From a virus: a stretch of DNA of 64,000 bases. The notes below the pieces were generated by a model. That model searched no databases, had not been told where the DNA came from, and saw only the letters and a list, made by a program, of their open reading frames with translations. The translations under genes and the position numbers were made by a program. This document shows, piece by piece, positions 44,787-63,801 of the stretch. The stretch is from positions 1-64,000 of the IMG/VR virus record IMGVR_UViG_3300037852_000415; one strand, 5' to 3'. The first letter of the stretch is position 1. Every line of letters begins with the position of its first letter.

Positions 44787-45791
44787 ATGGCTCGAGTACC
44801 TGTGGTCTACGAGGTTCCGGCTCAAGAGTGCCCGGCGGGCGGCGGCTGCCCGCATAGCCACCCCTCGAGTGTGCCGACGCTCCCGTGCCCTACGTGCGGC
44901 GCCGAGGACTACGTACCTAAGGGTCCCGACGGTAAGCCCGTGGGCAATAAGACGCCTTCCTACTACGACGCCAAGCGCGAGGCGCAGAAGCACAACGGCT
45001 ACGTCGAGTACGTCGACGAGAAGCGCGGCGCCGAGGCGCTACGGCGCAAGACGGTTCGCCTCAAGTGGCATCGTGATAAGAGTGACGGGCTCTATGCGGT
45101 AGGCGCCCTCGGGCGCTACAGCATCCACCGCCCCGAGCGCGTCAAGAGGAGTGCCGGCGTCTATCGGTGGGTGATTACGCTCGGTGGCTCGATGTTGCCG
45201 AAGAGCTTCGACGAGATCGCCAAGGCGAAGGCGTATGCCCAGCGCTACGACATGAAGGCGCCTTCGGTGCCGCAAGCGCCTGACTTGCCGGCGCCCTACG
45301 CGATGCCGCGCCCCCCCGACTTGCCCGGCTGCGCCCCTTTCACGACCACCACGCGCGACGAGGCGAAGTTCTCGGCGTGCATGGCGCTCGCGCAGCAGAT
45401 CGGGCCTATTACGACGCCGACGGCTGTCTACAAGCTCCTGAAAGACTACTGCGTTCGACAGGACCAGGAGGTGTTCCTAGTCGTCAGCCTCGACCTGCAC
45501 GGCCACTTACGCGGTATAGACGAGGTCGCCAAAGGACAGCGAGACCGCGTAAGCGTAGGCGTAGCGGATGTTATCCGTGCCGCACTCGATCGGGGCGCGA
45601 AGGGATTCATCGTTTGCCATACACACCCAAGCGGGAAAGCGCGTCCATCGCAAGCGGACAGAGACTTGACGAGGGCAATCATCAAAGCGCGTGCGCCATT
45701 CGGCAGTGATTGTGTGTTCGTAGACCACATAGTTCTAGGGCTGAACGAGTTCGCCTCAATCAAGCGTCGCAAGCTCTTTAGGGCACGCTAA
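44787..45791 (+). CDS. RadC-like JAB/MPN domain protein with long N-terminal extension
   Basis: QEVFLVVSLD...HTHPSG...PSQAD...VDHIVLG. Confidence 0.88.
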   Translation: MARVPVVYEVPAQECPAGGGCPHSHPSSVPTLPCPTCGAEDYVPKGPDGKPVGNKTPSYYDAKREAQKHNGYVEYVDEKRGAEALRRKTVRLKWHRDKSDGLYAVGALGRYSIHRPERVKRSAGVYRWVITLGGSMLPKSFDEIAKAKAYAQRYDMKAPSVPQAPDLPAPYAMPRPPDLPGCAPFTTTTRDEAKFSACMALAQQIGPITTPTAVYKLLKDYCVRQDQEVFLVVSLDLHGHLRGIDEVAKGQRDRVSVGVADVIRAALDRGAKGFIVCHTHPSGKARPSQADRDLTRAIIKARAPFGSDCVFVDHIVLGLNEFASIKRRKLFRAR

Positions 45792-47273: not shown

Positions 47274-48803
47274 ATGGCTACAGCAGAAAACGACGGCCTG
47301 GAGGCCTTCGAGGAGTCGAGTATCGAGGAAGAGACTGAAGAGGAAGAGGCTGGTGAAGAAGAGCCCGAAGAGGTGCCCGCCCCGCCCGCGCCTGTGCACC
47401 TCGCCAAGACTAAGACGCCCGGCGCGGCTGCCGATAAGAAGCGAAAGCCCCGCAACGACAAGGGCGGCACCCACGCTGCGCCCGGTGAGGGGTGGACCAA
47501 TCGCGAGGCAGACCTCATGTGGCCCGAGATGCTTCAACGCATCGGGCGGCTCAATCCCCCGCGTACGCCGTACGACCTCAGCATCCAAGTGATTCGGTTG
47601 TCGCCATCAGCGGTGACGTTGCCGAACCAGATCGACGGCGCCTACGTCGTCGGCGACAAGCGCCGTTCACCGGGTGACGCGCTCAGGGAAGCCGTCATCG
47701 ACTACTACCACCTGCCCGCCAACTGCGGCCCCGAAGAGTACGAGCTACGTTTCGTATGGAAGCAGACCGGGCGCGTCTACGGCAGGGGGAAGCTCACTCT
47801 CCCCTCCTGCGAAGAGATCATCGGCTACAGGCAGGCTGCCGAGCGCATGCGGCGCCGCCCCAGACAGGCTCACGGAGGCATGGCGAATCCGGCGCTCGAC
47901 GATGCGCCGTACGATGAATTCGAGCCGCCCCAGGCGCCGCGCAGGACCCCCGTAGGCTACGGCGCTGCGCCGCCGCAAGCGCCGGTGTTTGCGCCTGCGC
48001 CGTCGGCGTCGGCTGCGGACGCCTCTGGCGAGGTTGGCTACCTGCGACAGCAAGTAGGCTACTTGAGCGGGCAGCTGCAGCAGCTGATGGGTCTCATGGG
48101 CAAGCCTGGCTTCGGCGCCGCGCCGCCGTCGACGGCGCCAACCGGTGTCGCTGCAGCGCCGATGCCTGCGCCGCAAGCGCCGCCTGCCTCCTTAGAGGAG
48201 GCGATTGAGCGCGCCGCCGAGCGCATCCTAGCGCGCGCCGGCATCAAGCCGGGTATGCCGGGTGTCGGCACCGCCGGTACGCCCCCGCCTACCCCCGCAA
48301 GTGCCACTAACGAGCTTCACGCCGGCATCAACGCCTTCCGCACCTTCGTCGGTTTGGGCAAAGAGCTCCGACATCTCGCGAAGGAATTGAACAACGACTT
48401 CGGCGAAGGCGCCGGGGGCGCCGACGAAGAGCCGCAGCAGCTCATAGCGGAGCCCGTCGTCACTCCACCTAGCCCCGAGGATAAGCTCCCTTTCGAGGTG
48501 GTGCCCATTCCCGAGACAGACTTCCTCGGACACCCCGCAAAGTACGCCATCGATAAGGAGACGGGCGGCTTCTCGAGGGAGGGCTTCTTCATGGCGAACC
48601 CCGGTCTCGCTGAAAAAGCCATCGAAGTTGGCGGCAAGCTTGTCGAGGCGCTTAGCCGTATCGGTAAGGGCGGGGCCCCCCAGCAAGCTGCGGCGGAAGT
48701 CGTGCGCGAGATTCCTAGGGGTGCAGTAGACGCAGGCGTCGCCGGCAACGGTGGCGGCAGTAACGATGGCGGTGAAGTGCCGGACGGTAACGGAGGACTC
48801 TAG
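47274..48803 (+). CDS. Acidic/Pro-rich putative morphogenesis or scaffold protein
   Basis: Poly-E N-terminus; low-complexity centre punctuated by GYGA, GFGA, GVAA, GVGT. Confidence 0.65.
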   Translation: MATAENDGLEAFEESSIEEETEEEEAGEEEPEEVPAPPAPVHLAKTKTPGAAADKKRKPRNDKGGTHAAPGEGWTNREADLMWPEMLQRIGRLNPPRTPYDLSIQVIRLSPSAVTLPNQIDGAYVVGDKRRSPGDALREAVIDYYHLPANCGPEEYELRFVWKQTGRVYGRGKLTLPSCEEIIGYRQAAERMRRRPRQAHGGMANPALDDAPYDEFEPPQAPRRTPVGYGAAPPQAPVFAPAPSASAADASGEVGYLRQQVGYLSGQLQQLMGLMGKPGFGAAPPSTAPTGVAAAPMPAPQAPPASLEEAIERAAERILARAGIKPGMPGVGTAGTPPPTPASATNELHAGINAFRTFVGLGKELRHLAKELNNDFGEGAGGADEEPQQLIAEPVVTPPSPEDKLPFEVVPIPETDFLGHPAKYAIDKETGGFSREGFFMANPGLAEKAIEVGGKLVEALSRIGKGGAPQQAAAEVVREIPRGAVDAGVAGNGGGSNDGGEVPDGNGGL

Positions 48804-48805
48804 TC

Positions 48806-49123
48806 ATGGCTAAGAAGCAAAAGTCGACGGCGTCGGAAGCTTTCAAGAACACCCCGAAGACGCGCGTCATGCGCCCCGGTAGAAAGCCGACGAAGTACTG
48901 GCTCGACATCGACGCCGCGCTTACCATCGACGACAATACGAGTTTCGCGTTCAAGTTCCACGGGCTCGCGCCGAAGTTCGGAGGCCTCAGGCCGGAGGAG
49001 CTGCCTACGCTCCTGCGCGACCTAGCCGCGCAGCTAGAGAGCCAAGTGTCCACGTTCGATCTTGGCGCTATGGCCGGCGAAGCGGCCGCAGCCAAGGCGA
49101 CATCGAAGAAACAGCCGAACTAG
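48806..49123 (+). CDS. Hypothetical protein
   Basis: Follows 47274-48803 directly. Confidence 0.6.
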   Translation: MAKKQKSTASEAFKNTPKTRVMRPGRKPTKYWLDIDAALTIDDNTSFAFKFHGLAPKFGGLRPEELPTLLRDLAAQLESQVSTFDLGAMAGEAAAAKATSKKQPN

Positions 49124-50256
49124 GGCGCGGCGCTGACGACGACCGTCATCATGAACACCAGGTTCACGACGTTATTGCCGGAGTTGTCCAAGCCGTAGCG
49201 CGAGAAGACCAACGTGCCCCTGCCGGGCGACGTAGCTTGGAACGTGATGACGCCTTGGTCGGCTGCTTGTGAGGCCGCCGACTCCTGCCCCGCCATCGTG
49301 GTGATGGGCATCTGGCCGCCGTCGAGGGCGGCCGCGCCCCACGTGTTGCCGCTTGCGTCGACCCACCCGGTGTACCAGGAGTTGCAGTACACCCCCGGCG
49401 TGCTCGTGCTGCCCGAGGCGAAGACACCGCCGCGTGAATCCTGCGAGTTTTGCGGCGCCTGGGGCACGCACATGGGCGTCGCCGTCGGGTCGTTGAAGAT
49501 GAACGACACCACGTCCCCGACGTTCAGCGCGATGGGGTTACCGATCTGCTTGCCGTAGGTCGATACCGACTGGTTGACCCCGTTCGGCCAGCTGACTGCG
49601 TAGCTCTTGGGCACGTAGGGGGGCGCCTGCTGAGCGCCGCCGCCGTGCGGGTTGAAGACGACGACGCCCCCGCCCCCGTTGCTGCCGGGCTTGATCGTGG
49701 CGCCGCCGGTGTTCTTCGCGCCCCCGCCTTGGTTGACGACGAAACCGCCGCCGGTAAAGACGCCTGTGTTGGCGCCTTTCTGCGTAGCACCTGCTTGGTT
49801 GGACCCGCTACCGCCGCCCTGGTTGACGCCGCCGATAGCAGCGCTGACAGTTACCGTAGCGCTCAGCGACGGCACCCCCGAGACGGGCTGCCCCGTCGAG
49901 CTCGAGTAGAGCGTCGCGGCAATCATCGACGCGCCGACCTGCAGCCCCGTGAGGGTGAAGCTGTGGAGTGCCGGGCTTCCGACGCCGCCGCCCGTCGTGC
50001 CGACGTCGACGATGCTTACGACGGCGTTATTCTTCGCTTGCATCACCCACGCACTGCCGAGCATCTCGGGAAGCGTCACGCGCACCGGCACCCCGATGAC
50101 GAGTGGAATCGACGCGGGTAGAGACGCGCCGTTGTTGGCGGCGCCGCCCCCGCTTGTCGACGCTGCCGGCTTGTTACCGAGCAGTAGAAAACCGCCGACG
50201 CCAAGAATCGCCGCGGCGGCGCCGATGCCAACCCAAACCTTCGTCGACTCTTTCAT
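49120..50256 (-). CDS. N-anchored membrane protein with two Ig-like domains and Gly-rich linker
   Basis: N-terminal TM; FTLTGLQVGAS and FQATSPGRGTLVF Ig/chagasin-like strands. Confidence 0.7.
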   Translation of the reverse strand: MKESTKVWVGIGAAAAILGVGGFLLLGNKPAASTSGGGAANNGASLPASIPLVIGVPVRVTLPEMLGSAWVMQAKNNAVVSIVDVGTTGGGVGSPALHSFTLTGLQVGASMIAATLYSSSTGQPVSGVPSLSATVTVSAAIGGVNQGGGSGSNQAGATQKGANTGVFTGGGFVVNQGGGAKNTGGATIKPGSNGGGGVVVFNPHGGGAQQAPPYVPKSYAVSWPNGVNQSVSTYGKQIGNPIALNVGDVVSFIFNDPTATPMCVPQAPQNSQDSRGGVFASGSTSTPGVYCNSWYTGWVDASGNTWGAAALDGGQMPITTMAGQESAASQAADQGVITFQATSPGRGTLVFSRYGLDNSGNNVVNLVFMMTVVVSAAP

Positions 50257-50516
50257 CGTCTTTTCCTAGTTGCCAGCGTTGCCGCCGCCACCGGCGCTGC
50301 TGGCGCCGCTATTCGGGCCGCCGCCTTGGGAGCCTCCTGGGGCGACACCGCTGGAGCCGCCCCCACTCGAGCCTCCGCCACCACCAGAGGGCGGTTGAGG
50401 CGGTGCCGGGGCAGTTGCGTTTGCTGCGCGGCGTTGGCGCTGTTCGCCCAGAGAGCCACGCCCACAATCGCGGCTACGGCCCCGACGCCGAGCAGGATCT
50501 TCGTGGACTTCTTCAT
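50253..50516 (-). CDS. Small N-anchored membrane protein, possibly frameshifted
   Basis: MKKSTKILLGVGAVAAIVGVALW; the -1 frame gives a G/S-rich tail ending at 50266. Confidence 0.55.
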   Translation of the reverse strand: MKKSTKILLGVGAVAAIVGVALWANSANAAQQTQLPRHRLNRPLVVAEARVGAAPAVSPQEAPKAAARIAAPAAPVAAATLATRKRR

Positions 50517-50594
50517 CTTGCCGCCACGGCGGCTTCTGCTGCGGTGTCTCATAGGGGGTAGCTTACTCCAACGTCATACTGTAGGCTACAGCTT

Positions 50595-51719
50595 ATGCGC
50601 AGCGCGCGTGACGCAGAGCTGATGCTGATGCCCCACTTGCGGCGCGGCGTCGGGCAGCTTTCAGACTCGGCGCAGATTCAAAGCGTACTCGGAGGCATCC
50701 CAGGCGTCAGCCAAGGCCAAGTCAATCAAGCCATTACGACGTACAACGGGCTAACTTCGGCGGCGACCGGGAGCATCCTCGGCATCCTCAATGGCGGCCC
50801 CATCAACGCCGCTACGCTTGGGCCGGTTGTGGCGTCTGGGATGGCTTTGTTAGGCGCTACGGCGCCCGAGATTGCTGCAGTGGCGATCGGCTTGTCGGTG
50901 CTCGGCGCTTTCGCCTCCTTGTTCGCCCCGGCGCCTCAGAACTGTAGTTGGCGTGTCGCCAACAAGTGTTTCAACGCCAACCGCCCTTCGGGCCCCGGCG
51001 ACCCAGCGTGGATGACGTGGGGTCAATTCGCCCAGAACCCGCTCGACGTCGCGGCGGCGTTCCCTTGGTACTACGTGCAGGCGTGCGACCTCGGCGCCAT
51101 CAACTCGACGCCTACGCCATCACCGCAGCTGCAGTTTCTGAAGACGTACTACGCTGCGTGGCAAGCGAACGCCGAGTATCTCATCAACGGGTATCAGGCG
51201 ATTGACGATTGCGCCCTCCTGACGATTGTGGCTAACGCGTGGAACAACGGGCACGACGGGAGCTCTACGTATACATTCCAACCGACGCCCGCTTTCGGTC
51301 TTCAATCTGAGTGGGATTCGAGCTTCCCTGGCGGCATTCCCCGTGCGGTGCAGTGCCCCGGAGACCAAAACCTGCCCCCATTCGTTCCCGGCGCGCCGCC
51401 GACAGCTAGGAGCTACGTCGGCCTCTTGATGGATGGTGACATCACCGCTACGCGATGCAGCGCCCAGGGGCTTCCCATCAACACGGGCGGGGCGTTCTTG
51501 ACGAGCCACTTCATCCTGCCCCCCAAGGGCCCATCGGTGCCATCGACGACGTCAACAGGCGCGAAGGTTGCACTCGGAGGCGCCGCAGTCGTTGGCGCCG
51601 GGCTGTTGGGGATTGGCTTGTTGGCGCTTATCAAGGGGTGGGGCTTCGGTAAGGCAGTCGACTACGTGTGGGGTAAGACGGGCAAACCCGCCATCGCCTA
51701 CGTCAAGAAACACGTCTAA
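50595..51719 (+). CDS. Putative virion membrane protein
   Basis: RRGVGQ near N-terminus; internal and C-terminal hydrophobic helices. Confidence 0.7.
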   Translation: MRSARDAELMLMPHLRRGVGQLSDSAQIQSVLGGIPGVSQGQVNQAITTYNGLTSAATGSILGILNGGPINAATLGPVVASGMALLGATAPEIAAVAIGLSVLGAFASLFAPAPQNCSWRVANKCFNANRPSGPGDPAWMTWGQFAQNPLDVAAAFPWYYVQACDLGAINSTPTPSPQLQFLKTYYAAWQANAEYLINGYQAIDDCALLTIVANAWNNGHDGSSTYTFQPTPAFGLQSEWDSSFPGGIPRAVQCPGDQNLPPFVPGAPPTARSYVGLLMDGDITATRCSAQGLPINTGGAFLTSHFILPPKGPSVPSTTSTGAKVALGGAAVVGAGLLGIGLLALIKGWGFGKAVDYVWGKTGKPAIAYVKKHV

Positions 51720-51725
51720 GGAGTT

Positions 51726-52061
51726 GTGATGAGATCTTCAGTCGCAGCCGGAATTGTCCAAGGCGTGATCGGCGCGGCGGTTGTGACCGCTAGTGGGGCG
51801 GCCGTAGGCGCAGCGACAGCGGCGCCGTGCGGCTCTCATCCCGGTGAGTTGCTAGGCGATCTGTTCTGCGGCGCCGCCGGGGGCGCGCGGCTAGGGGCCG
51901 GCTACGGGCTATTGGCCAGCGGTGCTGTCGGTATTGGAGTCGCGCTGCTCTCCTCTAGATACCGCGCCGCTGGGCTAACCATGGCGGGCATTACGGTGGC
52001 TTTGGCTATACCCGGCGTAATATCGCAGGCCCTCAAACCGCCGCCCCCAACGACGACGTAG
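51726..52061 (+). CDS. Small multi-TM Gly/Ala-rich protein
   Basis: Three hydrophobic segments. Confidence 0.6.
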   Translation: MMRSSVAAGIVQGVIGAAVVTASGAAVGAATAAPCGSHPGELLGDLFCGAAGGARLGAGYGLLASGAVGIGVALLSSRYRAAGLTMAGITVALAIPGVISQALKPPPPTTT

Positions 52062-52093
52062 AATGCGCGACGTGCTCGTTCGGTGGATGAGCC

Positions 52094-52378
52094 ATGCAGT
52101 CTGAACTCGTCGGTCTCCTTTCTGGCGTCCTTGGCGACTCTCTGGCAAGGCGGTTGTTCTCGCTGATCGCCGAGCGTGGAAAGATGCGGCTACGCGACCT
52201 TGCCGAGGAGACCTCAGACGAACCCGAACCTGACATTGCGGCTGCGAGGCGAAGGTTGGATCAGCTCACACGGGCGGGCTTGATCGAAGAGGCTCCGGCG
52301 TCGATTCCTGACTGGAGCGTCTACTACATCACCTCGCGCGGCCTGACTACCTTCCGGCAACTTGGGCTCACCGCATAA
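52094..52378 (+). CDS. Winged-helix DNA-binding protein
   Basis: LRDLA...RRLDQLTRAGLIE...YYITSRG. Confidence 0.75.
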   Translation: MQSELVGLLSGVLGDSLARRLFSLIAERGKMRLRDLAEETSDEPEPDIAAARRRLDQLTRAGLIEEAPASIPDWSVYYITSRGLTTFRQLGLTA

Positions 52379-52380
52379 CC

Positions 52381-52950
52381 GTGCTCGCCGCCGCCCTCTT
52401 TGCTGTCGGCGGAAGCCTGATCCTTGGTGCCATTGAGGTGTTCGCTCGGCTAGGCTTGGCGCAGACGCCTCCGACAACTGTCGGTGTGCACATTGATTGG
52501 GTACAGCTTCCGAGCGGTCAAGACGTCCAAGTTACTAAGGGCTATGCCTACGCGGGCATCGTCAGTATCAAGAAGACTCGTACTAAAACAGACATAGCGG
52601 CCTTCCTGTTGAAGCGCGGACTGTCGATATCCGATTATGCCGAGCAAGGGCAGCGCCCCGATATCCCCGTCGACCCAGACCCGGACTACAAGACGGTCAC
52701 GTTGATGACGGCGGTAGCCGTAGCCAGCGACGGAACGATCCCCTGGCAGATGCCCGCGCTGCTCTCAGGGAGAGACCACGCCATCATTGTATGGGCCGGC
52801 ACGCCGAGCGGCTCTGGACTGCCGCCGGAACCGCCGGCTCCGCCTACTCCGGTGTGGCCGTATGTGGTAGGCGCCGTAGTCGTAGTGGGCTGCGGGTTGA
52901 CTGTGTGGGAGGTGTATCGCCGAGAGACGTCGAAAAGACGAGGCGCCTAG
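52381..52950 (+). CDS. Membrane protein with C-terminal anchor
   Basis: N- and C-terminal TMs, RLGLAQ motif, basic tail. Confidence 0.65.
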   Translation: MLAAALFAVGGSLILGAIEVFARLGLAQTPPTTVGVHIDWVQLPSGQDVQVTKGYAYAGIVSIKKTRTKTDIAAFLLKRGLSISDYAEQGQRPDIPVDPDPDYKTVTLMTAVAVASDGTIPWQMPALLSGRDHAIIVWAGTPSGSGLPPEPPAPPTPVWPYVVGAVVVVGCGLTVWEVYRRETSKRRGA

Positions 52951-53305
52951 CGCGAAGCTGCTTAGTCTGCGGAGCTATGTACTACCTCCTCTGCGAAAAG
53001 CACCGCATCAACAACTACTTCAAGTCGCGCCCACCGAGCGGTTCCGGCGCTGTCGCTACCTTCTGGTTCTTTGACTGCACCAACCTGAAGAGCGTCGAGC
53101 ACGCCTTCAACGATGCGCTCGCGTCAGGGAAGAAGTTCAGCGTCTTTCGCCCCTTCCCCATCGCGGGGAGCTGGTTCGGCTGCGACATCGTGGGGTACAC
53201 CCACAGGCCCAATGTCGGCATACACTCTGATGAGGCGGAAGCTGAGCGCCGGGGCGATATGCTCCACGAGTGGATCGAGACGCGAGCGCTGCGCATGGTG
53301 TAGAT

Positions 53306-53416
53306 ATGCTTGATGTTTTCGACACTATCCCGCCCGATGCGCACGCTCTACTGGTGCTTGTCGCCGTCGGCATGTTGCTGTTCGGTGCTGGCCTCTTGGC
53401 GATGCGTAAGCGCTAA
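53306..53416 (+). CDS. 36-aa membrane peptide
   Basis: Own translation MLDVFDTIPPDAHALLVLVAVGMLLFGAGLLAMRKR*. Confidence 0.55.
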   Translation: MLDVFDTIPPDAHALLVLVAVGMLLFGAGLLAMRKR

Positions 53417-53476
53417 CGCAGTTGCGCACACGAGTACGCAGCGGTAACCTATCGTAGTCAAAAGGAGACTACCAAG

Positions 53477-53992
53477 ATGGGCTGCTGCTCCAACTGTGAC
53501 AAAGGCCTGCCGTGCGCCGACGGTAATGGCGACCTGAACCCCGCTGTAGCTGCCGGTATCGCGGGCAGCGGTATGGGCGCTACCGCCATCGAGATGCAGG
53601 CCCTGCTAAAGTCTCGAGCGATGTCGCCGGCCCAGCGCGCGATGCAGGGCCACGTGCTGATTCAGCAGATGATGAGCGGTCGGCCGATCCGAGGTTTCGG
53701 CCAAGCCGGGGCCGTGCCCGCGAAGACGTGCTGCGGTGGCGGCACCATTATCGACGCGAACGGCAACTGCGTCCCCGCCTGTGTGAGCTCGGTGGGTGGC
53801 GCCGCCGGCAGCGTCGCCGCTAGCATACCGTCGGTAAACGGCCTCTGCCCCCAAGGCTTCCAGCTCGCGCCCCAGGGCATCGCCGACTACTGGTGCCAGG
53901 CGTCGACTACGGCGAAGGTCGCTGTCGTTGCCGGCGGCGTCGGCGTCGTCGGCCTGGGCGCCTGGCTCTTGATGCGCAAGAAGAGGAAGTAG
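53477..53992 (+). CDS. Cys-rich membrane protein with C-terminal anchor
   Basis: AGGAG RBS; GMGA and GFGQ motifs; TM then RKKRK. Confidence 0.75.
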   Translation: MGCCSNCDKGLPCADGNGDLNPAVAAGIAGSGMGATAIEMQALLKSRAMSPAQRAMQGHVLIQQMMSGRPIRGFGQAGAVPAKTCCGGGTIIDANGNCVPACVSSVGGAAGSVAASIPSVNGLCPQGFQLAPQGIADYWCQASTTAKVAVVAGGVGVVGLGAWLLMRKKRK

Positions 53993-54430
53993 ATGCCCCC
54001 CACCAACCAAGGGCGCGCGCTCGTCGCGCGCATGTACCGTGGGCTCGGTCAAGCCTCGAACGCGGCGCTGCCCCCGGGTACCGTAGCGAACCCCACCTAC
54101 GACCCTAACGCCGCCGCCGGTACGCACAACGCGTTTACGTGGGTGTCACAAGTCAGTGGGCTCAACGACGGCGACTGTTCGCAGAGCGCAGTCATCGACC
54201 CCATCACCGGCCAGTGCGCGAATCTCTGCCCCGACAACTCTCGGCCAGCGAACGGCTGCCCGCCCGCGACAGGCATTCCGCTCTGGTGGGGCCTCCTCCC
54301 CATGTGGCAGAAGGTTGCCGTCGGCGCGGGCGGCGCGGCGGTGGTGCTCGGCGGCGGATACATGCTGCTTCACAAGAGTAAGCCCGCCGCGCGACACGCG
54401 AAACGCCGCGCTAAGCATCGCAGAAGGTAG
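53993..54430 (+). CDS. Cys-containing membrane protein with C-terminal anchor
   Basis: YRGLGQ motif; TM then basic tail. Confidence 0.75.
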   Translation: MPPTNQGRALVARMYRGLGQASNAALPPGTVANPTYDPNAAAGTHNAFTWVSQVSGLNDGDCSQSAVIDPITGQCANLCPDNSRPANGCPPATGIPLWWGLLPMWQKVAVGAGGAAVVLGGGYMLLHKSKPAARHAKRRAKHRRR

Positions 54431-54433
54431 CAA

Positions 54434-54946
54434 GTGGATAGGCGCCTCGCTTGGGCACTTGGCGCAGTCGCGGTCGCAGGTGCGGCCGTCGGAGCGCTAA
54501 TCTTAGCGAGCGGCAGCAAGCCATCTGCGCCGAGCGGCGGCGTCACGCCGGCACCGGGCGGCGGCAATGGGGGCTCCGGTGTGAAACCCTCCTCCGACCC
54601 GTGGGGCGACCTGAAGACGCAGATTCAGATTCTCGACTTGAGCGCGAATAACCTCCGCGCCGACACGTTCGTCAATCACCCTACCGTGTGGGCGGTGTGG
54701 GTGGATGCGGGTACCGTCATGGACGACGCTAACAACCTGATGACGAATCCCGCCGGGCAGCCGCTAAAGCCCCCGGCATCCGCGGCGGGCCTCGCGACGC
54801 TCAACACCGACGTCACGAAGCTCTTTCAAGATTCCGCCGCGGCATCAACGGCTACATTGGTGCCTGCGTCGACGAAGGTGCTCGTCGCGGCTGTTGCGGC
54901 GGCGACGCTGGGCGTGTCGCGAGCCGCGTCTACCGCTGGTGTCTAA
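54434..54946 (+). CDS. N-anchored membrane protein
   Basis: TM then G/S/P linker. Confidence 0.65.
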   Translation: MDRRLAWALGAVAVAGAAVGALILASGSKPSAPSGGVTPAPGGGNGGSGVKPSSDPWGDLKTQIQILDLSANNLRADTFVNHPTVWAVWVDAGTVMDDANNLMTNPAGQPLKPPASAAGLATLNTDVTKLFQDSAAASTATLVPASTKVLVAAVAAATLGVSRAASTAGV

Positions 54947-56538: not shown

Positions 56539-56994
56539 ATGGGACGGCCCCCGAAAACACCTGAGGAGCATGCCGCACGTAACGCGTACAGACGAGCACA
56601 CTACGCTGCGCACAAAGATGAGATAAACGCTCGGCGGCGCGCCCCTGAGGCACTTGAGCGATCGCGGGCCGCCGGCCGCGCGCGGTACGCTGCACACAGA
56701 GACGACCCCGGCTTCAAAGAAGAGAATAGGGCTAGGGCGCGTGCGTACGTGGGGGCGCACAAAGACGATCCCGAATTCATCCTAATCTGTTCTCGCTTGA
56801 TGGCTGTGGGTGGTGGACGTGGAGGGCGCGGCAACAATACCGCTCACGTAGACCACGATCATGTTACCGGTGAAGTGCGCGGGCTCTTGTGCCACGCATG
56901 CAATATAGGCATCGGAGGGTTGAGAGACAGCATCGCGCTACTGAAGAACGCCGTCGCGTACCTAGAGAGCGGGCCATCATGCGTACTGGCGTAG
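56539..56994 (+). CDS. Endonuclease VII-like protein, possibly internally deleted
   Basis: HVDHDHVTGEVRGLLCHACNIGIG; first CxxC reduced to ILIC. Confidence 0.75.
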   Translation: MGRPPKTPEEHAARNAYRRAHYAAHKDEINARRRAPEALERSRAAGRARYAAHRDDPGFKEENRARARAYVGAHKDDPEFILICSRLMAVGGGRGGRGNNTAHVDHDHVTGEVRGLLCHACNIGIGGLRDSIALLKNAVAYLESGPSCVLA

Positions 56995-58625
56995 GAAGCG
57001 ATTCGTTCAATCCTGGCGTCAACAGGATGCGCGCAGCCGGCGTGAAGGTCGACGTGCAACCTTACAGCGACGGCCCCGCGGGTGTCGGCCAGAGCCTCGA
57101 CGTCATCGCCCAGAAGATTCGCGAAGGCGCTGCTGACAGTGACCTGCAGGGATGGAGTGCCGAGAAGCTTCGCGCCGCCGGGTTCGACGGGCGCGCCAAG
57201 ACGCCGACGGTACAGCAGCTCTGCGAAGTTCTTCTGGCCGCCTATCGGCAGGAAGTAATCTATGCCAGTGATCCGGCGCGCACCGAGCAGATCCAATCGC
57301 CCGCCGCGACATTGTGCTTACGCCCGGGGCTGTGCCTTCGACGTGGTGACTGCGACGACGGAGTCGTCGCTCTCGGCGCGGCCATTCTGTCGTACGCTGT
57401 GCCCGTGCGGGTTATAAAACAGCCATACGCTCAGCAAGAGCACGTATTGCTGGGCGTCATCGACGACAGCGGCACAGTCTTGTACGTCGATACCGCTAAC
57501 AACCTGTATAAGGTAGGGCCTGGCGGTTCACCGGGGTGTCCGCCTAAGGTGCCTGGCGAAACCTATGTCGACCCCATGAATAGCGCCCCTGCCGGCCCCG
57601 CCGGCACCTCTGGCGCCCAGCTTATCACCCTCGGAGCCTCGCCCAAGATGCAATCTCAATCGCAGTCGTCTCAAGCCGTCTATAGGCACAACAGATGGTG
57701 GCGCCTCAGCGCCGGCTGCGGCGGCAACCTCGAAGTTCACGAAGGCGGCAACTGGTACAGAGTCGGCACCGGCCAGGCCCCCGCGGCGCCGAGCGACTTC
57801 GCAGCTCTGAAGGCGGCGCAGGATGCGCAGTGGAGCCAGGTGTCGGCGCAGATTCAAGCCTGCAGCTCTGGATTGACGGCATCTTCGCAGTCGGCGTTCG
57901 CCTCCGACTATGCCACGTGGCAAGCCTTTGCGGCGTCGACTACGGCGACGGCGGACGACTACACGCGCCTTCGCGCCTTCAACAGCATCCTTCAGGTGTG
58001 GCAGCTGAAGGCGCAGGTCTACTGCAACGCCGCATCGAACCCCGGCGGCGCCGTCGGCGTCGGCGCGATTCACGTGCCGGGCATCAACTGCAACATCGAC
58101 GACTTGAAGGGGCAGAAGTTGCGCCTCCTCGGGCCCTGGACGCAGCTCGGAAACGACGTCGACAACTGCCCGCTCTGCAAAGACGACCGAAGCCTCTGCG
58201 CCGCGACGAGCGCGTATCCCAACGGGGCCCCGAACGGGATGACGCTGACGCAGAAAACCGACTTCCTCCAAGACTTCCTCACGTTTCAGAACTGGTACAA
58301 CGCCGACTTCCCCATCTGCGACGCCGATGCCGAGATAAACCAGGGGCGCGATCTAGAGCAGCGCTACGACAGGTGGCGGAAGATTGTCACCCAATTCTGC
58401 ACCGGCGCGAATCTGCCGGGGGTGCAGTCGCCTGACTTGCCCCCGCTCCGCAATGACGACCCCCGAAGCCCCAACTACGTACCCCCGGCCGGCCCCGGCG
58501 ACATCGCAGCAAGCATCGCGAAGAGTGTCGCCGTCGTCGGCGTCGCAGCCGCCGCGATCTACGGTATGTACATCATCGCCCCGGCGGCGCGGAACCTCTT
58601 CGATAGAGTCACCAAGAAGAAGTAG
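56979..58625 (+). CDS. Transglutaminase-like (Cys-His-Asp) enzyme with C-terminal membrane anchor, candidate maturation protease
   Basis: Y..DP...EQIQSP...GDCDD...EHV...YVD; C-terminal TM plus KKK; likely start MRTGVGS. Confidence 0.8.
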   Translation: MRTGVGSDSFNPGVNRMRAAGVKVDVQPYSDGPAGVGQSLDVIAQKIREGAADSDLQGWSAEKLRAAGFDGRAKTPTVQQLCEVLLAAYRQEVIYASDPARTEQIQSPAATLCLRPGLCLRRGDCDDGVVALGAAILSYAVPVRVIKQPYAQQEHVLLGVIDDSGTVLYVDTANNLYKVGPGGSPGCPPKVPGETYVDPMNSAPAGPAGTSGAQLITLGASPKMQSQSQSSQAVYRHNRWWRLSAGCGGNLEVHEGGNWYRVGTGQAPAAPSDFAALKAAQDAQWSQVSAQIQACSSGLTASSQSAFASDYATWQAFAASTTATADDYTRLRAFNSILQVWQLKAQVYCNAASNPGGAVGVGAIHVPGINCNIDDLKGQKLRLLGPWTQLGNDVDNCPLCKDDRSLCAATSAYPNGAPNGMTLTQKTDFLQDFLTFQNWYNADFPICDADAEINQGRDLEQRYDRWRKIVTQFCTGANLPGVQSPDLPPLRNDDPRSPNYVPPAGPGDIAASIAKSVAVVGVAAAAIYGMYIIAPAARNLFDRVTKKK

Positions 58626-59152: not shown

Positions 59153-60820
59153 ATGTCTGACTACATCGACATCATGCAGCAGGAGACCGGAGACGACATG
59201 GCAGCCAGCCGACGCCGAAGCCGCCGCGCCAAAAGCGGCAAAAAGTCGAAGAATCGCGCGGCATTCGAGCGCGCCAGGCGCATCGCGAAGAAGCGCCCCG
59301 CTCCGAAGCGGCGCAGCGCACGCAGAGGCGCAAAAGAAGCTTCACGCGCGAAAAGTCGTACCCGCCGCTTGACAAAAGCGCGTAGGGCAGTGCACACTTC
59401 CCGAAGTGCAGGGGAGTCTCGGGGAAAACGAAGGAACCGACGTCGCAAACAGCGAGTTTCCAGGGAGACCCCGTCAATGGCCCGTAAACGAAAGCGCAGC
59501 TGCAAGTACGGTAAGCTCAAGGTGAAGCGCGGGCGGCGCCGGTGTAAGAAGCCGGCGGCGGTGCACGCTCGCCGGAAGAGCGCGAAGCGCGTGGCGGCTG
59601 GCCGGAAGGCCGCCCGCACCCGCAAGCGCCGCGCCGGTCGGGGGAGCCCCTCCCACGGTATGCACTCTGCGTGGGAAGCTCCGAAGCGCAAGCGTAGCAA
59701 GAAGCGCGGCAAGAAGCGCAGCCGCGCTAGCTACAAGCGCAAGCGTCCGGGCCATCGCAAGCACAGCGTGAGGGGCTACTACCGCAAGAAGAGCCGCGGT
59801 AGCCGCAAGCGCGTCTACGTCAGGGGCCATCGGAGCCATGAGGCCCCGAAGCGTCGTCGACGCCGCCGGCATCACGCCGCCGCAAAGCGCCACTCGCGTC
59901 GCCACTACCACCGTCGCTCTCGGGCGATGGAGAACCCCATCTCCGTGATGGACGGCGTGGTCGGCGGCGTTTGCGGCCTCATCGGCTACGGCGCGGCTGA
60001 AGTCGTGGACCGCCTCCTCGCCACCCACGCCCTCACCGACACGAACACCAAGGACGCGAACGGGGTGGAACTCTACACCGACCCCGCCGACTCGAGCGGT
60101 CACTGGAATGCCACCTACGTGCTCGGGCCCATGAGCCTCGGCAGGTGGGCGGCAGGCCTCGGCATCGCAATCGTCCCGCTCTTGGCTGGCGGGATGATCA
60201 AGAAGCCTGCGCTGCGCTCCTGCGTGCAGTTCTTCGGCTTCGGCGCGTTGATTCGCACCGGCGGAAAGGGCCTCACGGATCTGCTCGCCTACGTCTCGCG
60301 CAAAACCGCGGTCGGCCAGCGCCTCTTCATCCCCGAAGACAGCGCCCAGTCCGCGCTCAGCGCCGGCAAGTACGACACGACGCTCCCGGGCATCGCGCCC
60401 GGACCTACCGGCCTCGCGGGGCTTCCCCCCGCCGGCTGCGGGTGCGTCAACTGCAAGACGGGCGTCGGCGCTTGCTGCGGCAAGACGACCATCGCTCAGC
60501 TTCAGCAGGGCACCATCCAGCGCGCCACGGGGCAGCCCCAGACGGGCTCTGTCGCCAACCCCACCGTCAACACCGGCGAGACGGTAGGCACTCCGGCTCA
60601 GCAGCCTCCGGGCGGCGCGAACCAGGGCGGCACCCCTGTCGGCGTCGCCAATCCGCCCTCGCCGTCGCCAGTCGGCGTCGTCTTCGGTGGCGGTGGCATC
60701 GTGCCCTCTACTTCACCTGGACCCCTCCGCGGGGCCCCGCTTGGCTCGGGTGCAGGCCGCTCCCCGGCAATGCCCGTCCTTTACAACCCCAACATTCGGC
60801 GCATGGCCGAAGGAAACTAG
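59153..60820 (+). CDS. Protamine-like Arg/Lys-rich protein fused to a membrane domain, candidate DNA-condensing core protein
   Basis: About 240 aa dominated by R/K/S/H, then hydrophobic helices and a Cys cluster; directly upstream of the capsid candidate. Confidence 0.75.
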   Translation: MSDYIDIMQQETGDDMAASRRRSRRAKSGKKSKNRAAFERARRIAKKRPAPKRRSARRGAKEASRAKSRTRRLTKARRAVHTSRSAGESRGKRRNRRRKQRVSRETPSMARKRKRSCKYGKLKVKRGRRRCKKPAAVHARRKSAKRVAAGRKAARTRKRRAGRGSPSHGMHSAWEAPKRKRSKKRGKKRSRASYKRKRPGHRKHSVRGYYRKKSRGSRKRVYVRGHRSHEAPKRRRRRRHHAAAKRHSRRHYHRRSRAMENPISVMDGVVGGVCGLIGYGAAEVVDRLLATHALTDTNTKDANGVELYTDPADSSGHWNATYVLGPMSLGRWAAGLGIAIVPLLAGGMIKKPALRSCVQFFGFGALIRTGGKGLTDLLAYVSRKTAVGQRLFIPEDSAQSALSAGKYDTTLPGIAPGPTGLAGLPPAGCGCVNCKTGVGACCGKTTIAQLQQGTIQRATGQPQTGSVANPTVNTGETVGTPAQQPPGGANQGGTPVGVANPPSPSPVGVVFGGGGIVPSTSPGPLRGAPLGSGAGRSPAMPVLYNPNIRRMAEGN

Positions 60821-60873: not shown

Positions 60874-62157
60874 ATGGCTGGTCGTCTCGCAAAACCCACT
60901 CAGAAGAACCCGCGGCTGACGCTCGGCGTCGGCCAGGGCACGCCCAACTCGGACATCGTCAACCTCTTCAAGAGCGCGACGAGCTGCCCCATCTACGCTT
61001 TGCCGACGGTGGCGAAGCGCCAGTGGGAGTTCGAGGGCCCGGTGTCGCAGGCCAACGTTCAGCGAAGCCTCGGCAACCAGATCGACATCCTCGGCGGCAG
61101 CAACGCCACGGCGCCCGACAACGTCTACCAGACCGACGGGCTCATCAACGGTGAATTCCAGACGTACGTCCTCGCGTGCGCCGTCGGAATGCACCTCGAG
61201 CCGGAACCCATGTGCTGGACGGCGCAGGGCAACGCGATTCTCGTGCCGGGCTCGTCCATCCCGATGCCGAACAGCCCCGACGACTACACCGTGCTCGACC
61301 AGAGCAACTTGGTGTACGGCGGTGCGACGCAGTCTGTGCCTCAGGTGCAGACGAGCATGCGGCGTGCGGTGCTCGAGTGGGGCTGGTGGGCGAACTACGC
61401 CTTCTGGCACCTCGTCCGCGGGTACAACCTCCGTTGGACCTACGGCTCCCTCATCAACATCATGGACGAGCAGCTGCGCGACACCGCGTACACGCCGCCC
61501 AACGCTCAGGAAGGCTCTGCCTCTTCGAGCCAGGTTGCTATCTGCGACTTCGTGCAGCGCACGAACCAGCGGTACATCTCGACGCTCGCCGCGACGCGCA
61601 TGTTCCTCTGGCAGAACCTCGTTCGCGTCGGCACCCTCGGCGCGACGACCACGTCGACCGAGACGCAGGGCAAGTTCCGGCCCTTCGACGACGTCCTCGT
61701 GGACGCCACCTACGGAGGCATGGATCTGCGAAGCATGCTGCGTAACAACAGCGAGTTCCGCACCCTCGAGCAGCCGTACATCCTGAAGCCGGGCGTTCCG
61801 CCGGGCCTCATCCTCGAAGCGAACGGCGACAACGCCGAGCAGGCGCTCTTCCAGGCGCAGTTCGACGCGTCGGGCGGCTTCACGGGCGCGACCCCGCCTT
61901 ACTCGTTGACCCCCTTCGGCACGCTCATCGCGAACGGCGCCGGCCAGGTGTTCGACGAGCTCTCGGCGGACAACGTCGATGTTCTCCAGCAGGTCAACAC
62001 CGAGCACTACGTGTTCAAGGGCGGAACGGCGCTCATGAGCATGGAGATCAAGGGCTACGAGATCACCGAGCCCCTCGCGGACCAGATCAAGAGCGACCCC
62101 ACGCTCCAGGCTCAGATCTGCTCCGAGTGCGGCTGCGCGGTCGGCTGGGCCTCGTAA
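60874..62157 (+). CDS. Candidate major capsid protein (single jelly roll with insertions)
   Basis: Extreme C/G-ending codon bias; YVLACAVGMHL, QPYILKPGVPPGLIL and terminal MSMEIKGYE strands. Confidence 0.55.
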   Translation: MAGRLAKPTQKNPRLTLGVGQGTPNSDIVNLFKSATSCPIYALPTVAKRQWEFEGPVSQANVQRSLGNQIDILGGSNATAPDNVYQTDGLINGEFQTYVLACAVGMHLEPEPMCWTAQGNAILVPGSSIPMPNSPDDYTVLDQSNLVYGGATQSVPQVQTSMRRAVLEWGWWANYAFWHLVRGYNLRWTYGSLINIMDEQLRDTAYTPPNAQEGSASSSQVAICDFVQRTNQRYISTLAATRMFLWQNLVRVGTLGATTTSTETQGKFRPFDDVLVDATYGGMDLRSMLRNNSEFRTLEQPYILKPGVPPGLILEANGDNAEQALFQAQFDASGGFTGATPPYSLTPFGTLIANGAGQVFDELSADNVDVLQQVNTEHYVFKGGTALMSMEIKGYEITEPLADQIKSDPTLQAQICSECGCAVGWAS

Positions 62158-62254
62158 TCGGCGGAAGCTGATTCACGGCAGGGCAGCGCAAGCTGCCTCG
62201 CCGTCGACAGCCTCGCTGTGAGAGCGGTGCTGTCGACGACGAAAGGCGTGAGAG

Positions 62255-62893
62255 ATGGCTGACGAGACGAAAGAGCTGAAGGAAGGCGTCGGAAGCTGCG
62301 GTAACCCCAGCCAGTGCTGCGGGCCCGCCGTCGAGGACGTCCGCCAGATGCTTGCGCTCGGCTCACCGAGACTCGCGCTAGCGAAAGCGCTCGGCGTGCC
62401 CCTCGCACCCTGGGCGTTCACCATCACTGCCACGTTCACCAGCGTCAGCCAGAACCTCGTCGCCGACCAGGGCCAAAACGTGAAGCTGGTGCAGGACATC
62501 ATCGTCGATGACATCCGCTACCAGATCGACACGCAAGTGACGCCGAGCGGCGACTTCGACAACTTCAATTACGCCTGCTTCGCACAACAGAGCAATATCG
62601 AAGCGAACCTCCGCGTCAGCGGCGCGCCCCGATACGACGTGTACTCGCAGTTCACGCCGCTCGCGATGATTCGCCGGCCCACGCAAGGGTGGGTTCTCCA
62701 GCAGACGAACGGCGTCTTGATGTCCTTCCAGAGCAACGTTCCCCTTCAGAATGTGCCCATCAAGATCTCCTTCGTCTTCGAGTGCCGGACCACGCACTGG
62801 GCGAAGCTCATCGACATGAAGCAGCGCGAAGCGGTGCAGATGCTCTGCAAGCTCGGGTACGACGTCGGGTCTTACACAGAGCTCTACTGCTAA
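62255..62893 (+). CDS. Candidate second single-jelly-roll capsid protein
   Basis: FTITATF, DIIVDDIRYQI, IEANLRV, TPLAMI, GWVLQQTNGVLMSF, IKISFVFECR strand pattern. Confidence 0.55.
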   Translation: MADETKELKEGVGSCGNPSQCCGPAVEDVRQMLALGSPRLALAKALGVPLAPWAFTITATFTSVSQNLVADQGQNVKLVQDIIVDDIRYQIDTQVTPSGDFDNFNYACFAQQSNIEANLRVSGAPRYDVYSQFTPLAMIRRPTQGWVLQQTNGVLMSFQSNVPLQNVPIKISFVFECRTTHWAKLIDMKQREAVQMLCKLGYDVGSYTELYC

Positions 62894-62907
62894 GGGAGGT
62901 GCCCTAG

Positions 62908-63801
62908 ATGGCGCCTCGCCAAAAAGAGTACCAGAGCTGGGGCATCGACCAGAGCGCTGCGTTCGTCGAGACGGACCCGTTTGGCGGGCTCTCGAGCCTC
63001 GGCGTCAAGGTACCGACACTCTCGACAGCCGCGCTGCCCTCGGCGAATCCGCCGACGCTCGGGTACAACAGTCGCTACCTCTTTCACCTCGCGAGCTTCC
63101 ACGTGCCCGAGAGTGGCGGGTGTGCGCGCATCACCGGCTACCGGCTGAACGTCCAGATCTGGGCGTTGCAGTCTGGCGAGGGCGGCAACCGGTACGTCAA
63201 GCAAACCGTCTACGACCCCGCCTTCAGCTTCCAAGACGGCAACTGGAGCTGGCACCTGCGCTTCATCCCCGATGTCGGGATGAACGGCATCAGAGTGAGC
63301 CCCCCTCTGCCCGTCAATCAGAATGACGGCACGACGGCAAACCTCGATGGCACTGCGTACCGATGGGCTGACACGCCCGCGATTCTCTATGAGAACATGC
63401 TCGTCGCCGCCGGAGATCCCTTCTACGTCGATCTGTTGGATTACACACCCCCGAATAGCGGCAGGCCTTGGGGAGAGCCCCTCGCCGGCATGGGCACATT
63501 CTACGGCGTGAGCACGCCTTGGAATACGCACGGCGCATGGAGCGCGCTCGATATCGAGTGCGATGCGCCAGGCACCTACGCCCTCTTCTGCAGCGTTAGG
63601 CAAACGAATAGCTCTACGCGAACCCCGCTGACGCCGCCTGGCACCTTCTTCGGTAACGGTCTCTCCGCCGAAGAGCAGTTCCTCTTGAACTTCCCCGGCG
63701 CCTGGATCGGCTCTGTTGGGGGGAGCCTCGTAGTCACCTCCGACGACGGCGACTGCGGCGACCAGTTCGGCAATCGTGAGAAGGAAGGGCCCTGCTCCTA
63801 A
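62908..63801 (+). CDS. Candidate minor capsid/penton-like beta protein
   Basis: Beta-rich (ARITGYRL, WSWHLRFI, YALFCSVRQT); follows the capsid candidates. Confidence 0.45.
   Translation: MAPRQKEYQSWGIDQSAAFVETDPFGGLSSLGVKVPTLSTAALPSANPPTLGYNSRYLFHLASFHVPESGGCARITGYRLNVQIWALQSGEGGNRYVKQTVYDPAFSFQDGNWSWHLRFIPDVGMNGIRVSPPLPVNQNDGTTANLDGTAYRWADTPAILYENMLVAAGDPFYVDLLDYTPPNSGRPWGEPLAGMGTFYGVSTPWNTHGAWSALDIECDAPGTYALFCSVRQTNSSTRTPLTPPGTFFGNGLSAEEQFLLNFPGAWIGSVGGSLVVTSDDGDCGDQFGNREKEGPCS

Follow-up and report, generated by a model that had tools for sequence, protein, structure and literature searches.

The adjacent genes g076 and g077, probably together with g078, most likely encode jelly-roll shell proteins of a complete 77-kb soil bacterial virus; no head, portal or DNA-packaging genes of ordinary tailed phages are detectable in this genome, and such a build has so far been described only for viruses two to four times smaller. 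The window analyzed here is a 64,000-nucleotide stretch (positions 1 to 64,000) of IMG/VR record IMGVR_UViG_3300037852_000415, a complete 77,344-bp virus record with a 62-bp terminal repeat and a CheckV completeness of 100. The best reading is that these are the coat proteins of an uncultured lineage of large, temperate, tailless and probably membrane-containing soil viruses, in design closest to SPV1 (Portogloboviridae) and to the two-coat-protein viruses (P23-77, SH1, SSIP-1); this reading is favored over its alternatives, though with no more than moderate confidence, as the structural matches are weak and no sequence link to any known virus was found.

Organization of the gene block

The block and the associated genes discussed below are as follows.
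47274..48803, + strand: g062, 509 aa, acidic and largely low-complexity protein with a coiled-coil stretch, scaffold-like
49120..54946: g064-g071, cluster of small membrane-anchored proteins
56889..58625, + strand: g074, 578 aa, conserved protein with a predicted C-terminal membrane anchor
59153..60820, + strand: g075, 555 aa, protamine-like basic domain joined to a glycine-rich hydrophobic domain and a G/P-rich tail
60874..62157, + strand: g076, 427 aa, large predicted jelly-roll protein, candidate major capsid protein
62158..62254, + strand: structured intergenic spacer after g076
62255..62893, + strand: g077, 212 aa, small predicted single jelly-roll protein, candidate second coat or vertex protein
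62908..63801, + strand: g078, 297 aa, conserved third protein of the block

The initial annotation described g076, g077 and g078 as strongly codon-biased, beta-rich adjacent genes in a window free of HK97, portal and terminase motifs, and this observation is confirmed, with the beta-richness shown for the two modeled proteins, g076 and g077. The third-position GC of the three genes is 0.91, 0.85 and 0.80, compared to about 0.72-0.83 for most genes of the genome; g076 has the highest third-position GC and the second-highest codon-usage score of all 99 called genes, which is by far the highest per residue. An AGGAAGG ribosome-binding site lies 8 nt upstream of g076. The spacer that follows g076 folds with -56.5 kcal/mol (z -5.6), and 0 of 200 shuffles fold as well; it contains no U tract, and a role as a transcript stabilizer or attenuator is inferred. 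Pieces of g076 at 99% identity or more occur in contigs of four soil RNA libraries; this is weak evidence, as those runs were chosen with this gene, the libraries may contain DNA, the contigs cannot rank genes, and parts of the stretch without cover carry no meaning.

The order g074-g075-g076-g077-g078 is kept in 11 related viral loci from contigs of 38-79 kb. Within the block g076 is the best-conserved protein, with 35-78% identity compared to 30-61% for g077; g078 is conserved at 34-63% identity in all 11 loci and always follows g077, while g077 always lies directly after g076 and g075 directly upstream of g076. The five genes of the block, with g059, g062 and g083, are the only ones found in all four complete relatives (76-79 kb), while the replication genes vary. 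A total of 188 homologs of g076 and 197 clusters at 50% identity were found.

The protein g075 has a pI of 11.9; about 260 residues dominated by R and K are followed by hydrophobic glycine-zipper stretches, and DNA condensation by this protein is an inference. In g074 a membrane segment is predicted at residues 538-567, and a Cys-His-Asp motif of transglutaminase type is seen by eye only; neither Pfam nor PHROGs returned a match. The alignment of g062 shows short conserved domains between P/Q/G-rich linkers and no family matches; the scaffold role is inferred, while a portal or terminase identity was rejected, as the protein is mostly low-complexity with a coiled coil. Seven of the eight genes of the g064-g071 cluster have predicted membrane segments; counting g074 and the genes after g078 that run past the end of the window (g079-g082, g085), 13 of the 22 genes g064-g085 have them.

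Predicted structures of the candidate coat proteins

The AlphaFold model of g076 (pLDDT 85.8, pTM 0.85) features 19 strands with three long helices between strand groups and shows a jelly-roll core; neither it nor the model of g077 has an HK97 fold. Jelly-roll capsid proteins are among its best structural matches, namely those of HCIV-1 (Z 5.4), SPV1 (Z 5.4), HHIV-2 (4.8), PRD1 P3 (4.5-4.7) and P23-77 VP16/VP17 (4.4/4.3); about 110-170 residues align and these span residues about 20-420, so the core carries large insertions. The model of g077 (pLDDT 81.8, pTM 0.72) contains exactly eight strands in residues 50-180 plus flanking helices, and an invariant GSPRLALAKALG helix precedes the barrel; its matches include a PBCV-1 capsid chain (Z 7.8), the SPV1 coat (6.7-7.2), HHIV-2 (6.3-6.7), HCIV-1 (5.6) and SH1 (5.5), and Foldseek gives a probability of 0.95 for SPV1 and 0.89 for SH1. 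These scores do not stand above those of cellular jelly rolls such as PHM, GOLD and nucleoplasmin domains, and by the guidance of the comparison method a Z under 8 may reflect only a common fold; Foldseek returned no hit at E 0.001 or below against PDB for either model, or against BFVD for g076. For g078 the available Atlas model is unusable (pLDDT 0.32); by inspection only, the sequence has no long helix-like stretch. Hetero-oligomer modeling of g076 with g077 returned a score of 0.00 (mark 0.32), which counts neither for nor against binding.

The initial annotation also described the genes as tandem single-jelly-roll capsid genes with a shared late-strand pattern. The motifs are present and in the models fall on β-strands (296-304, 312-316 and 386-397 of g076; 146-148, 153-160 and 169-180 of g077), however the shared pattern is not statistically supported; hhalign comparison of the three family profiles gives probabilities of only 0.2-2.4%, the proteins are not detectable paralogs, and a reading as tandem duplicates was rejected. 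The only local match does pair the two C-terminal strand-plus-helix stretches in question (g076 377-424 with g077 160-205, E 0.03).

No sequence or profile link to any known capsid protein was found. Pfam, PHROGs, profiles against PDB sequences and tblastn against 50,697 phage records gave nothing meaningful for g074 and g076-g078, and g076 scored 0.78 to picobirna- and partitivirus capsid clusters in the Protein Atlas, below the level that carries meaning.

An alternative is that g076 is a strongly derived double jelly-roll coat protein of the PRD1/PM2 kind, with g077 and/or g078 as single jelly-roll penton proteins, which would make the virus an outsized member of the double jelly-roll viruses. 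The 427 aa of g076 are in the size range of such coats, its 19 strands fall into groups separated by helices, and PRD1 P3, PR772, STIV, FLiP, faustovirus and PBCV-1 coats appear among its matches; furthermore, the best match of g077 is a PBCV-1 capsid chain, and the STIV penton protein A223 scores 6.5. The matches of g076 to double jelly-roll coats are however poor (Z 3.7-4.7, rmsd 6-9 Å; for PRD1 P3 and STIV, Z 4.5-4.7 and 4.3 with rmsd of 5-9 Å, from a model of more than 400 residues searched as one chain), aligning only one barrel's worth of residues (about 130-170) spread over the whole chain, where true double jelly rolls usually match strongly. Foldseek gives no hit with E below 0.04 and no A32/FtsK-type ATPase, a hallmark of that group, was found; this alternative is considered unlikely.

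Genome content and the lack of detected tailed-phage hallmark genes

The genome carries its own family A polymerase, helicases and primase. All proteins over 200 aa were scanned against Pfam, and the unexplained ones against PHROGs; none matched a terminase, portal, HK97 capsid or tail tube. Six-frame searches at E 0.01 found no Terminase_6N or TerL_ATPase in five related records (four complete), and no Terminase_3 or Phage_portal in five complete genomes (this one and its four complete relatives); six-frame searches of the same five genomes also found no Phage_capsid (PF05065, the one HK97 family searched in this way), FtsK_SpoIIIE or Pox_A32; the absence of HK97, portal and terminase genes thus holds for the entire 77,344-bp record, although it rests on sequence profiles, which can miss extreme divergence. 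A DUF87/HerA match occurs only in one relative (G004), far from its coat genes. Walker A motifs occur only in a helicase, the VapE primase-helicase and the Sak4-like protein g045; the latter was rejected as a packaging motor as it matches PHROG 124 (E 1e-14), lies with the replication genes and is missing from G004. The lack of a detectable packaging ATPase weighs against the favored reading, as every well-studied bacterial membrane-containing icosahedral dsDNA virus has one.

It is possible, though unlikely, that this is a very divergent tailed phage whose HK97 capsid, portal and terminase have drifted beyond profile detection, with g076 and g077 acting as jelly-roll decoration, cement or receptor-binding proteins. 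The genome size and replication genes (family A polymerase, VapE, Sak4, ThyX) are typical of tailed phages, as are the integrase, the fiber with a Peptidase_S74 chaperone domain and the beta-helix protein; g061 shares a domain with baseplate and virion proteins in PHROGs, and jelly-roll cement and fiber proteins of tailed phages (Pam1, KHP40 and phage 7-7-1) appear among the matches of g077. Large terminase is however the best-conserved phage gene, and it was not found in the complete genomes searched with three Pfam families, whole-Pfam scans and PHROGs; among the genes found in all complete relatives that have no family match, none is long enough, free of a membrane anchor and free of low complexity to be a portal or terminase. 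The dense cluster of membrane-anchored proteins is also unusual for a tailed phage.

It is considered very unlikely that the block is a cell-surface or compartment-forming system carried by an integrative element wrongly classed as viral. No virion has been seen, jelly rolls are common in non-viral proteins, and an integrase and a repressor-like HTH protein are present; however, terminal repeats and the near-constant size (76-79 kb) of independent records are as expected of a packaged genome, and a lysin-type hydrolase, an M23 peptidase and fiber-type proteins are present. A scan of 185,579 species genomes gave only two short MAG contigs, from Polyangiaceae and Chloroflexota; the block is not a common chromosomal island, and this is too little to name a host.

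Comparison with known viruses

The initial annotation proposed a large relative of the sphaerolipovirus-type viruses with its own replisome, and this interpretation is partly supported: the predicted jelly-roll cores, the replication genes, the absence of recognizable tailed-phage hallmarks and the richness in membrane anchors are upheld, while kinship with sphaerolipoviruses is not supported. [quoted passage not shown] Both g076 and g077 have predicted jelly-roll cores, g076 with about 280 extra residues, and coat proteins of these viruses are among their matches, but at a Z of only 4.3-6.7, in the range of common folds. The Halopanivirales genomes are 16-31 kb and have a conserved FtsK/HerA-type packaging ATPase next to the coat genes, which was not found here, and no sequence similarity between the coat proteins was detected.

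The design is at least as close to archaeal Sulfolobus polyhedral virus 1 (SPV1; Portogloboviridae; PDB 6OJ0). SPV1 has an outer shell of two single jelly-roll proteins, one hexameric and one pentameric, an inner lipid layer with many membrane proteins, and circular dsDNA wound with a basic protein into a nucleoprotein core; no ATPase is named in its ICTV profile (PMC8459092). The SPV1 coat is among the top structural matches of both g076 and g077, though with scores in the range of common folds and no sequence similarity. SPV1 infects hyperthermophilic archaea, has a genome of about 20 kb and encodes no polymerase, while the 77-kb genome described here is from soil, has bacterial-type genes (KGG repeat, Rv2525c-like hydrolase and GroES) and carries its own replication and lysogeny modules; its large candidate coat protein is more than twice the size of SPV1 VP4.

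SSIP-1 is the largest cultured bacterial virus of this build, with circular dsDNA of 44 kb, a 100-nm T=49 shell, an internal membrane, two coat protein types and almost no database similarity (PMC6356626, PMC6260650). The only BFVD match of g076 with high probability (0.87) is a 211-residue unnamed viral protein, I1ZBH9, whose length equals that of SSIP-1 gp46, although this does not establish its identity. Profiles of g076, g077, g078 and g062 score about zero bits against all SSIP-1 proteins, and tblastn of g074 and g076-g078 finds nothing in it; SSIP-1 is a halophile phage with half the genome size. The double jelly-roll membrane phages (PRD1, PM2 and FLiP; Tectiliviricetes) are tailless with an internal membrane, many small membrane proteins, vertex spikes and virion-associated lytic enzymes, however they have a single double jelly-roll coat, an A32/FtsK-type ATPase and genomes of 9-15 kb. 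No description of the lineage was found in a full-text literature search, which did not cover most subscription journals.

Proposed virion and implications

In the favored model g076 would be the major coat protein of a tailless icosahedral virus of a soil bacterium, a single jelly-roll core carrying about 280 extra residues that probably form an outward-facing domain; g077 would be a small single jelly roll, either completing the capsomers or forming the vertices. The neighbors g074, g075 and the many membrane-anchored proteins would line an internal membrane, the protamine-like half of g075 would condense the circular 77-kb genome against that membrane, and the particle would then assemble around condensed DNA rather than being filled by a motor; the S74 and beta-helix proteins could serve as vertex spikes. 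Of this model, the analysis itself demonstrates the jelly-roll folds of g076 and g077 (as confident models), the conservation and order of the block, the completeness of the genome and the lack of detected tailed-phage hallmark genes or packaging ATPases; the shell role of the proteins, any arrangement of their barrels in a shell, the membrane, DNA condensation by g075 and motor-free assembly are inferred without particle, lipid or proteome data.

More tentatively, and with somewhat less than even likelihood, the block may mark an undescribed, widespread lineage, at family level or above, of large (about 64-87 kb) temperate, tailless soil bacterial viruses that build a shell of single jelly-roll proteins over an internal membrane and enclose a genome condensed by a protamine-like membrane protein, with no packaging motor of either known kind; this would be a third way, for bacteria, of making a large dsDNA virion.

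Such viruses carry no Pfam or PHROG marker in their virion genes, so marker-based annotation cannot place them; the family is not rare, given its 197 clusters and its complete relatives of similar genome size. Every cultured bacterial dsDNA virus above about 45 kb is a tailed phage with an HK97 capsid, a portal and a terminase, while membrane-containing jelly-roll phages are small, at 9-44 kb; a complete 77-kb genome with its own replication genes, an integrase, jelly-roll coat candidates and no packaging motor would roughly double the size range of that build. It would also raise the question of how so much DNA is enclosed without an ATPase, for which the nearest model is archaeal SPV1.

Gene content and codon bias of the locus

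Three adjacent ORFs on the + strand fill the locus; most genes of this 63% GC genome have third-position GC of about 0.72-0.83.

Coordinates and third-position GC of the three ORFs (window positions)
60874-62157, + strand: g076, 427 aa, third-position GC 0.91
62255-62893, + strand: g077, 212 aa, third-position GC 0.85
62908-63801, + strand: g078, 297 aa, third-position GC 0.80

In a codon-usage score trained on the long genes, g076 ranks second of 99 called genes, behind only the 849-aa polymerase, and is far the highest per residue; it is also preceded by a good ribosome-binding site, AGGAAGG, 8 nt before the ATG. None of the three proteins matches Pfam or PHROGs, and neither do the products of the upstream neighbours g074 and g075. 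The 97-nt spacer that follows g076 (window 62158-62254) folds into nested hairpins (-56.5 kcal/mol, z -5.6, with 0 of 200 shuffles as good) and has no U tract; RNA contigs of two soil runs (X8 and X10) both end at 62148, just before it. The spacer may be a transcript-stabilising or attenuating element that raises coat mRNA over the downstream genes.

The complete genome

The window is bases 1-64000 of a 77,344-bp IMG/VR virus record with a 62-bp direct terminal repeat, which CheckV rates as 100% complete; the question raised in the initial annotation of what the remaining contig might encode can therefore be settled. A total of 99 genes was called; every protein over 200 aa was scanned against Pfam, and the unexplained large ones against PHROGs. 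In these scans no protein matches a terminase, portal, HK97 capsid, tail tube, sheath or tape measure.

Recognisable genes of the 77,344-bp genome
g001: SF1 helicase
g009: SNF2 helicase
g014: fibre-type protein with a Peptidase_S74 chaperone domain
g015: beta-helix protein
g028: VapE primase-helicase
g032: PD-(D/E)XK nuclease
g041 (window 28775-31165): 796-aa protein with a weak M23 peptidase match
g044: Rv2525c-like hydrolase
g045: Sak4-like ATPase
g050: UDG-family A polymerase fusion
g056: ThyX
g058: methyltransferase
g059 (window 44787-45791): RadC/JAB protein
g083 (genome 65831-66082, beyond the window; 7831-8082 of locus L002): KGG-repeat protein
g084: GroES homologue
g091: HTH regulator
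g092: tyrosine integrase

The g041 protein is very acidic (pI 4.1) with membrane segments at both ends, and is conserved only in the nearest relative; it may be a virion-borne wall-degrading or entry protein. The longest gene-free gap of the genome (1.2 kb; genome 72469-73681, beyond the window) lies next to the integrase gene and has been flagged as a possible structured RNA.

Predicted folds of g076 and g077

The g076 protein has 188 homologues, all unnamed, which lie mostly on contigs of 60-140 kb where the contig is long. A 56-sequence alignment gave a confident model (pLDDT 85.8, pTM 0.85) with 19 strands. Foldseek found nothing at E 0.001 or below, however its weak list is dominated by jelly-roll capsids, namely those of papillomavirus L1, STIV, SPV1 and Providence virus. 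Exhaustive structural alignment placed HCIV-1 (Z 5.4, 134 residues), SPV1 (Z 5.4, 146 residues) and HHIV-2 (4.8) on top; PRD1 P3 (4.5), P23-77 VP16 and VP17 (4.4 and 4.3) and PBCV-1 (4.4) rank lower, interleaved with cellular proteins. The aligned residues amount to one barrel, but span residues about 20-420; the simplest reading is one jelly-roll core carrying about 280 extra residues, a domain layout that is inferred from the alignment ranges alone.

The g077 protein was modelled from 25 sequences (pLDDT 81.8, pTM 0.72) and is predicted to be a clean eight-stranded sandwich in residues 50-180, flanked by N- and C-terminal helices. Its best matches are a PBCV-1 capsid chain (Z 7.8), EhV-201 (7.5), the SPV1 coat (6.7-7.2), the faustovirus coat (6.9), phiCjT23 (6.7), HHIV-2 (6.3-6.7), STIV A223 (6.5), HCIV-1 (5.6, 18% identity) and SH1 (5.5); Foldseek gives SPV1 a probability of 0.95 and SH1 0.89. 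All of these scores, for g076 and g077 alike, lie in the range that the alignment tool itself calls common, and cellular jelly rolls (PHM, GOLD, nucleoplasmin, discoidin) as well as jelly-roll cement or fibre proteins of tailed phages (Pam1, KHP40, 7-7-1) sit among them. The fold class is therefore established, and kinship with a particular virus family is not. The initial annotation had presented the three genes as a tandem set, however the three families are not detectable paralogues; for g078, the Atlas model is unusable.

Conservation of the block and its neighbours

Eleven related viral loci, with g076 identity of 35-78%, come from contigs of 38-79 kb, and all keep the order g074-g075-g076-g077-g078. 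In four complete relatives (75.6-78.6 kb; three with terminal repeats) the genes found in all are g059, g062, g074-g078 and g083, with the GroES homologue g084 in three. The polymerase, helicases and Sak4-like ATPase are missing from the most distant of these relatives, G004, which has swapped the replication module (no polymerase A, SF1 helicase or Sak4 homologues were found in it by BLAST). The virion-type block, not the replication module, therefore defines the lineage.

Of the conserved neighbours, g075 (window 59153-60820) is striking; about 260 of its residues are almost pure Arg and Lys, resembling a protamine (pI 11.9 overall), and are followed by glycine-rich hydrophobic segments and a G/P-rich tail. 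It lies directly upstream of the candidate coat gene g076 in all 11 relatives. The g074 protein (window 56889-58625) has a Cys-rich middle part and ends in a membrane anchor; it carries a GDCDD...H...D pattern that looks by eye like a transglutaminase or cysteine-protease core, however Pfam and PHROGs give no match and the enzyme assignment is therefore unsupported. A link between this protein and G-x-G-Q motifs in virion proteins has also been suggested. The g062 protein is acidic and mostly low-complexity with a coiled-coil stretch, and looks scaffold-like. The RadC-like JAB metalloprotease gene g059 heads the conserved run g059-g062, and its product may be a maturation or assembly protease rather than a DNA-repair protein. 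The g083 protein is an 84-aa basic protein with two KGG stress-protein repeats (Pfam E 3e-10), shares 45-69% identity with its counterparts in the complete relatives, and is encoded next to g084. Of the 22 genes g064-g085, 13 have predicted membrane segments, mostly C-terminal anchors; as general background, such density is typical of internal-membrane viruses and unusual in tailed phages.

Search for hallmark genes in the lineage

Six-frame family searches gave no match, while the control genomes did. Terminase_3, Phage_portal, Phage_capsid, FtsK_SpoIIIE and Pox_A32 were searched in this genome and the four complete relatives; Terminase_6N and TerL_ATPase were searched in five related records that did not include this genome. 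DUF87/HerA matched only a 605-codon frame in G004 (locus L033, G004:33183-36323), far from its coat genes; G004 alone carries this HerA/DUF87-type ATPase of about 600 aa. Canonical Walker A motifs in the genome under study occur only in g001, g028 and g045, plus one chance-like site. The virus thus lacks both known kinds of dsDNA packaging motor, as far as sequence profiles can see.

Distribution

A profile search of 1.84 billion representative proteins found 197 clusters at E 0.001 or below, and 89 at 1e-30 or below; the full-length ones are nearly all 400-490 aa. The stretch occurs in many soil metagenomes. Pieces of g076 at 99% identity or more also occur in contigs of four soil RNA libraries; this is considered weak evidence, as those runs were chosen with this gene and the libraries may contain DNA. 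No bacterial genome gave a usable host clue.

Comparison with known viruses and proposed virion architecture

In design the nearest systems are SPV1, the two-coat-protein single-barrel viruses, and SSIP-1, which is the largest cultured bacterial example at 44 kb and T=49 (PMC6356626, PMC6260650). None shares detectable sequence with this virus, and the ATPase that defines the single-barrel and double-barrel groups was not found. The virus is therefore considered a variation on an existing virion design and not a member of any named family; no description of it was found in the literature, within an incomplete collection of papers.

The observation of the initial annotation is confirmed. Its interpretation is supported only in part: a tailless jelly-roll virus is likely, while the proposed relationship to the sphaerolipoviruses is not shown. 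The explanation favored here is held with moderate confidence, and of its elements only the folds, the conservation and the absences rest on the analysis itself; the remainder is inferred by analogy. In this view g076 would form the bulk of an icosahedral shell, with its insertion facing out, and g077 would either complete mixed capsomers, as VP16 does with VP17 in P23-77 (PMC4958249), or form pentons, as VP10 does in SPV1 (PMC8459092); g078 would be a further shell or vertex component. The fibre-type g014 and beta-helix g015 proteins would be vertex fibres, while g041 and g044 would breach the wall on entry and exit; the integrase and HTH protein indicate a temperate life. The membrane-anchored proteins would populate an inner lipid layer, and the basic half of g075 would condense the genome on that membrane, so that shell and membrane would close around pre-condensed DNA.
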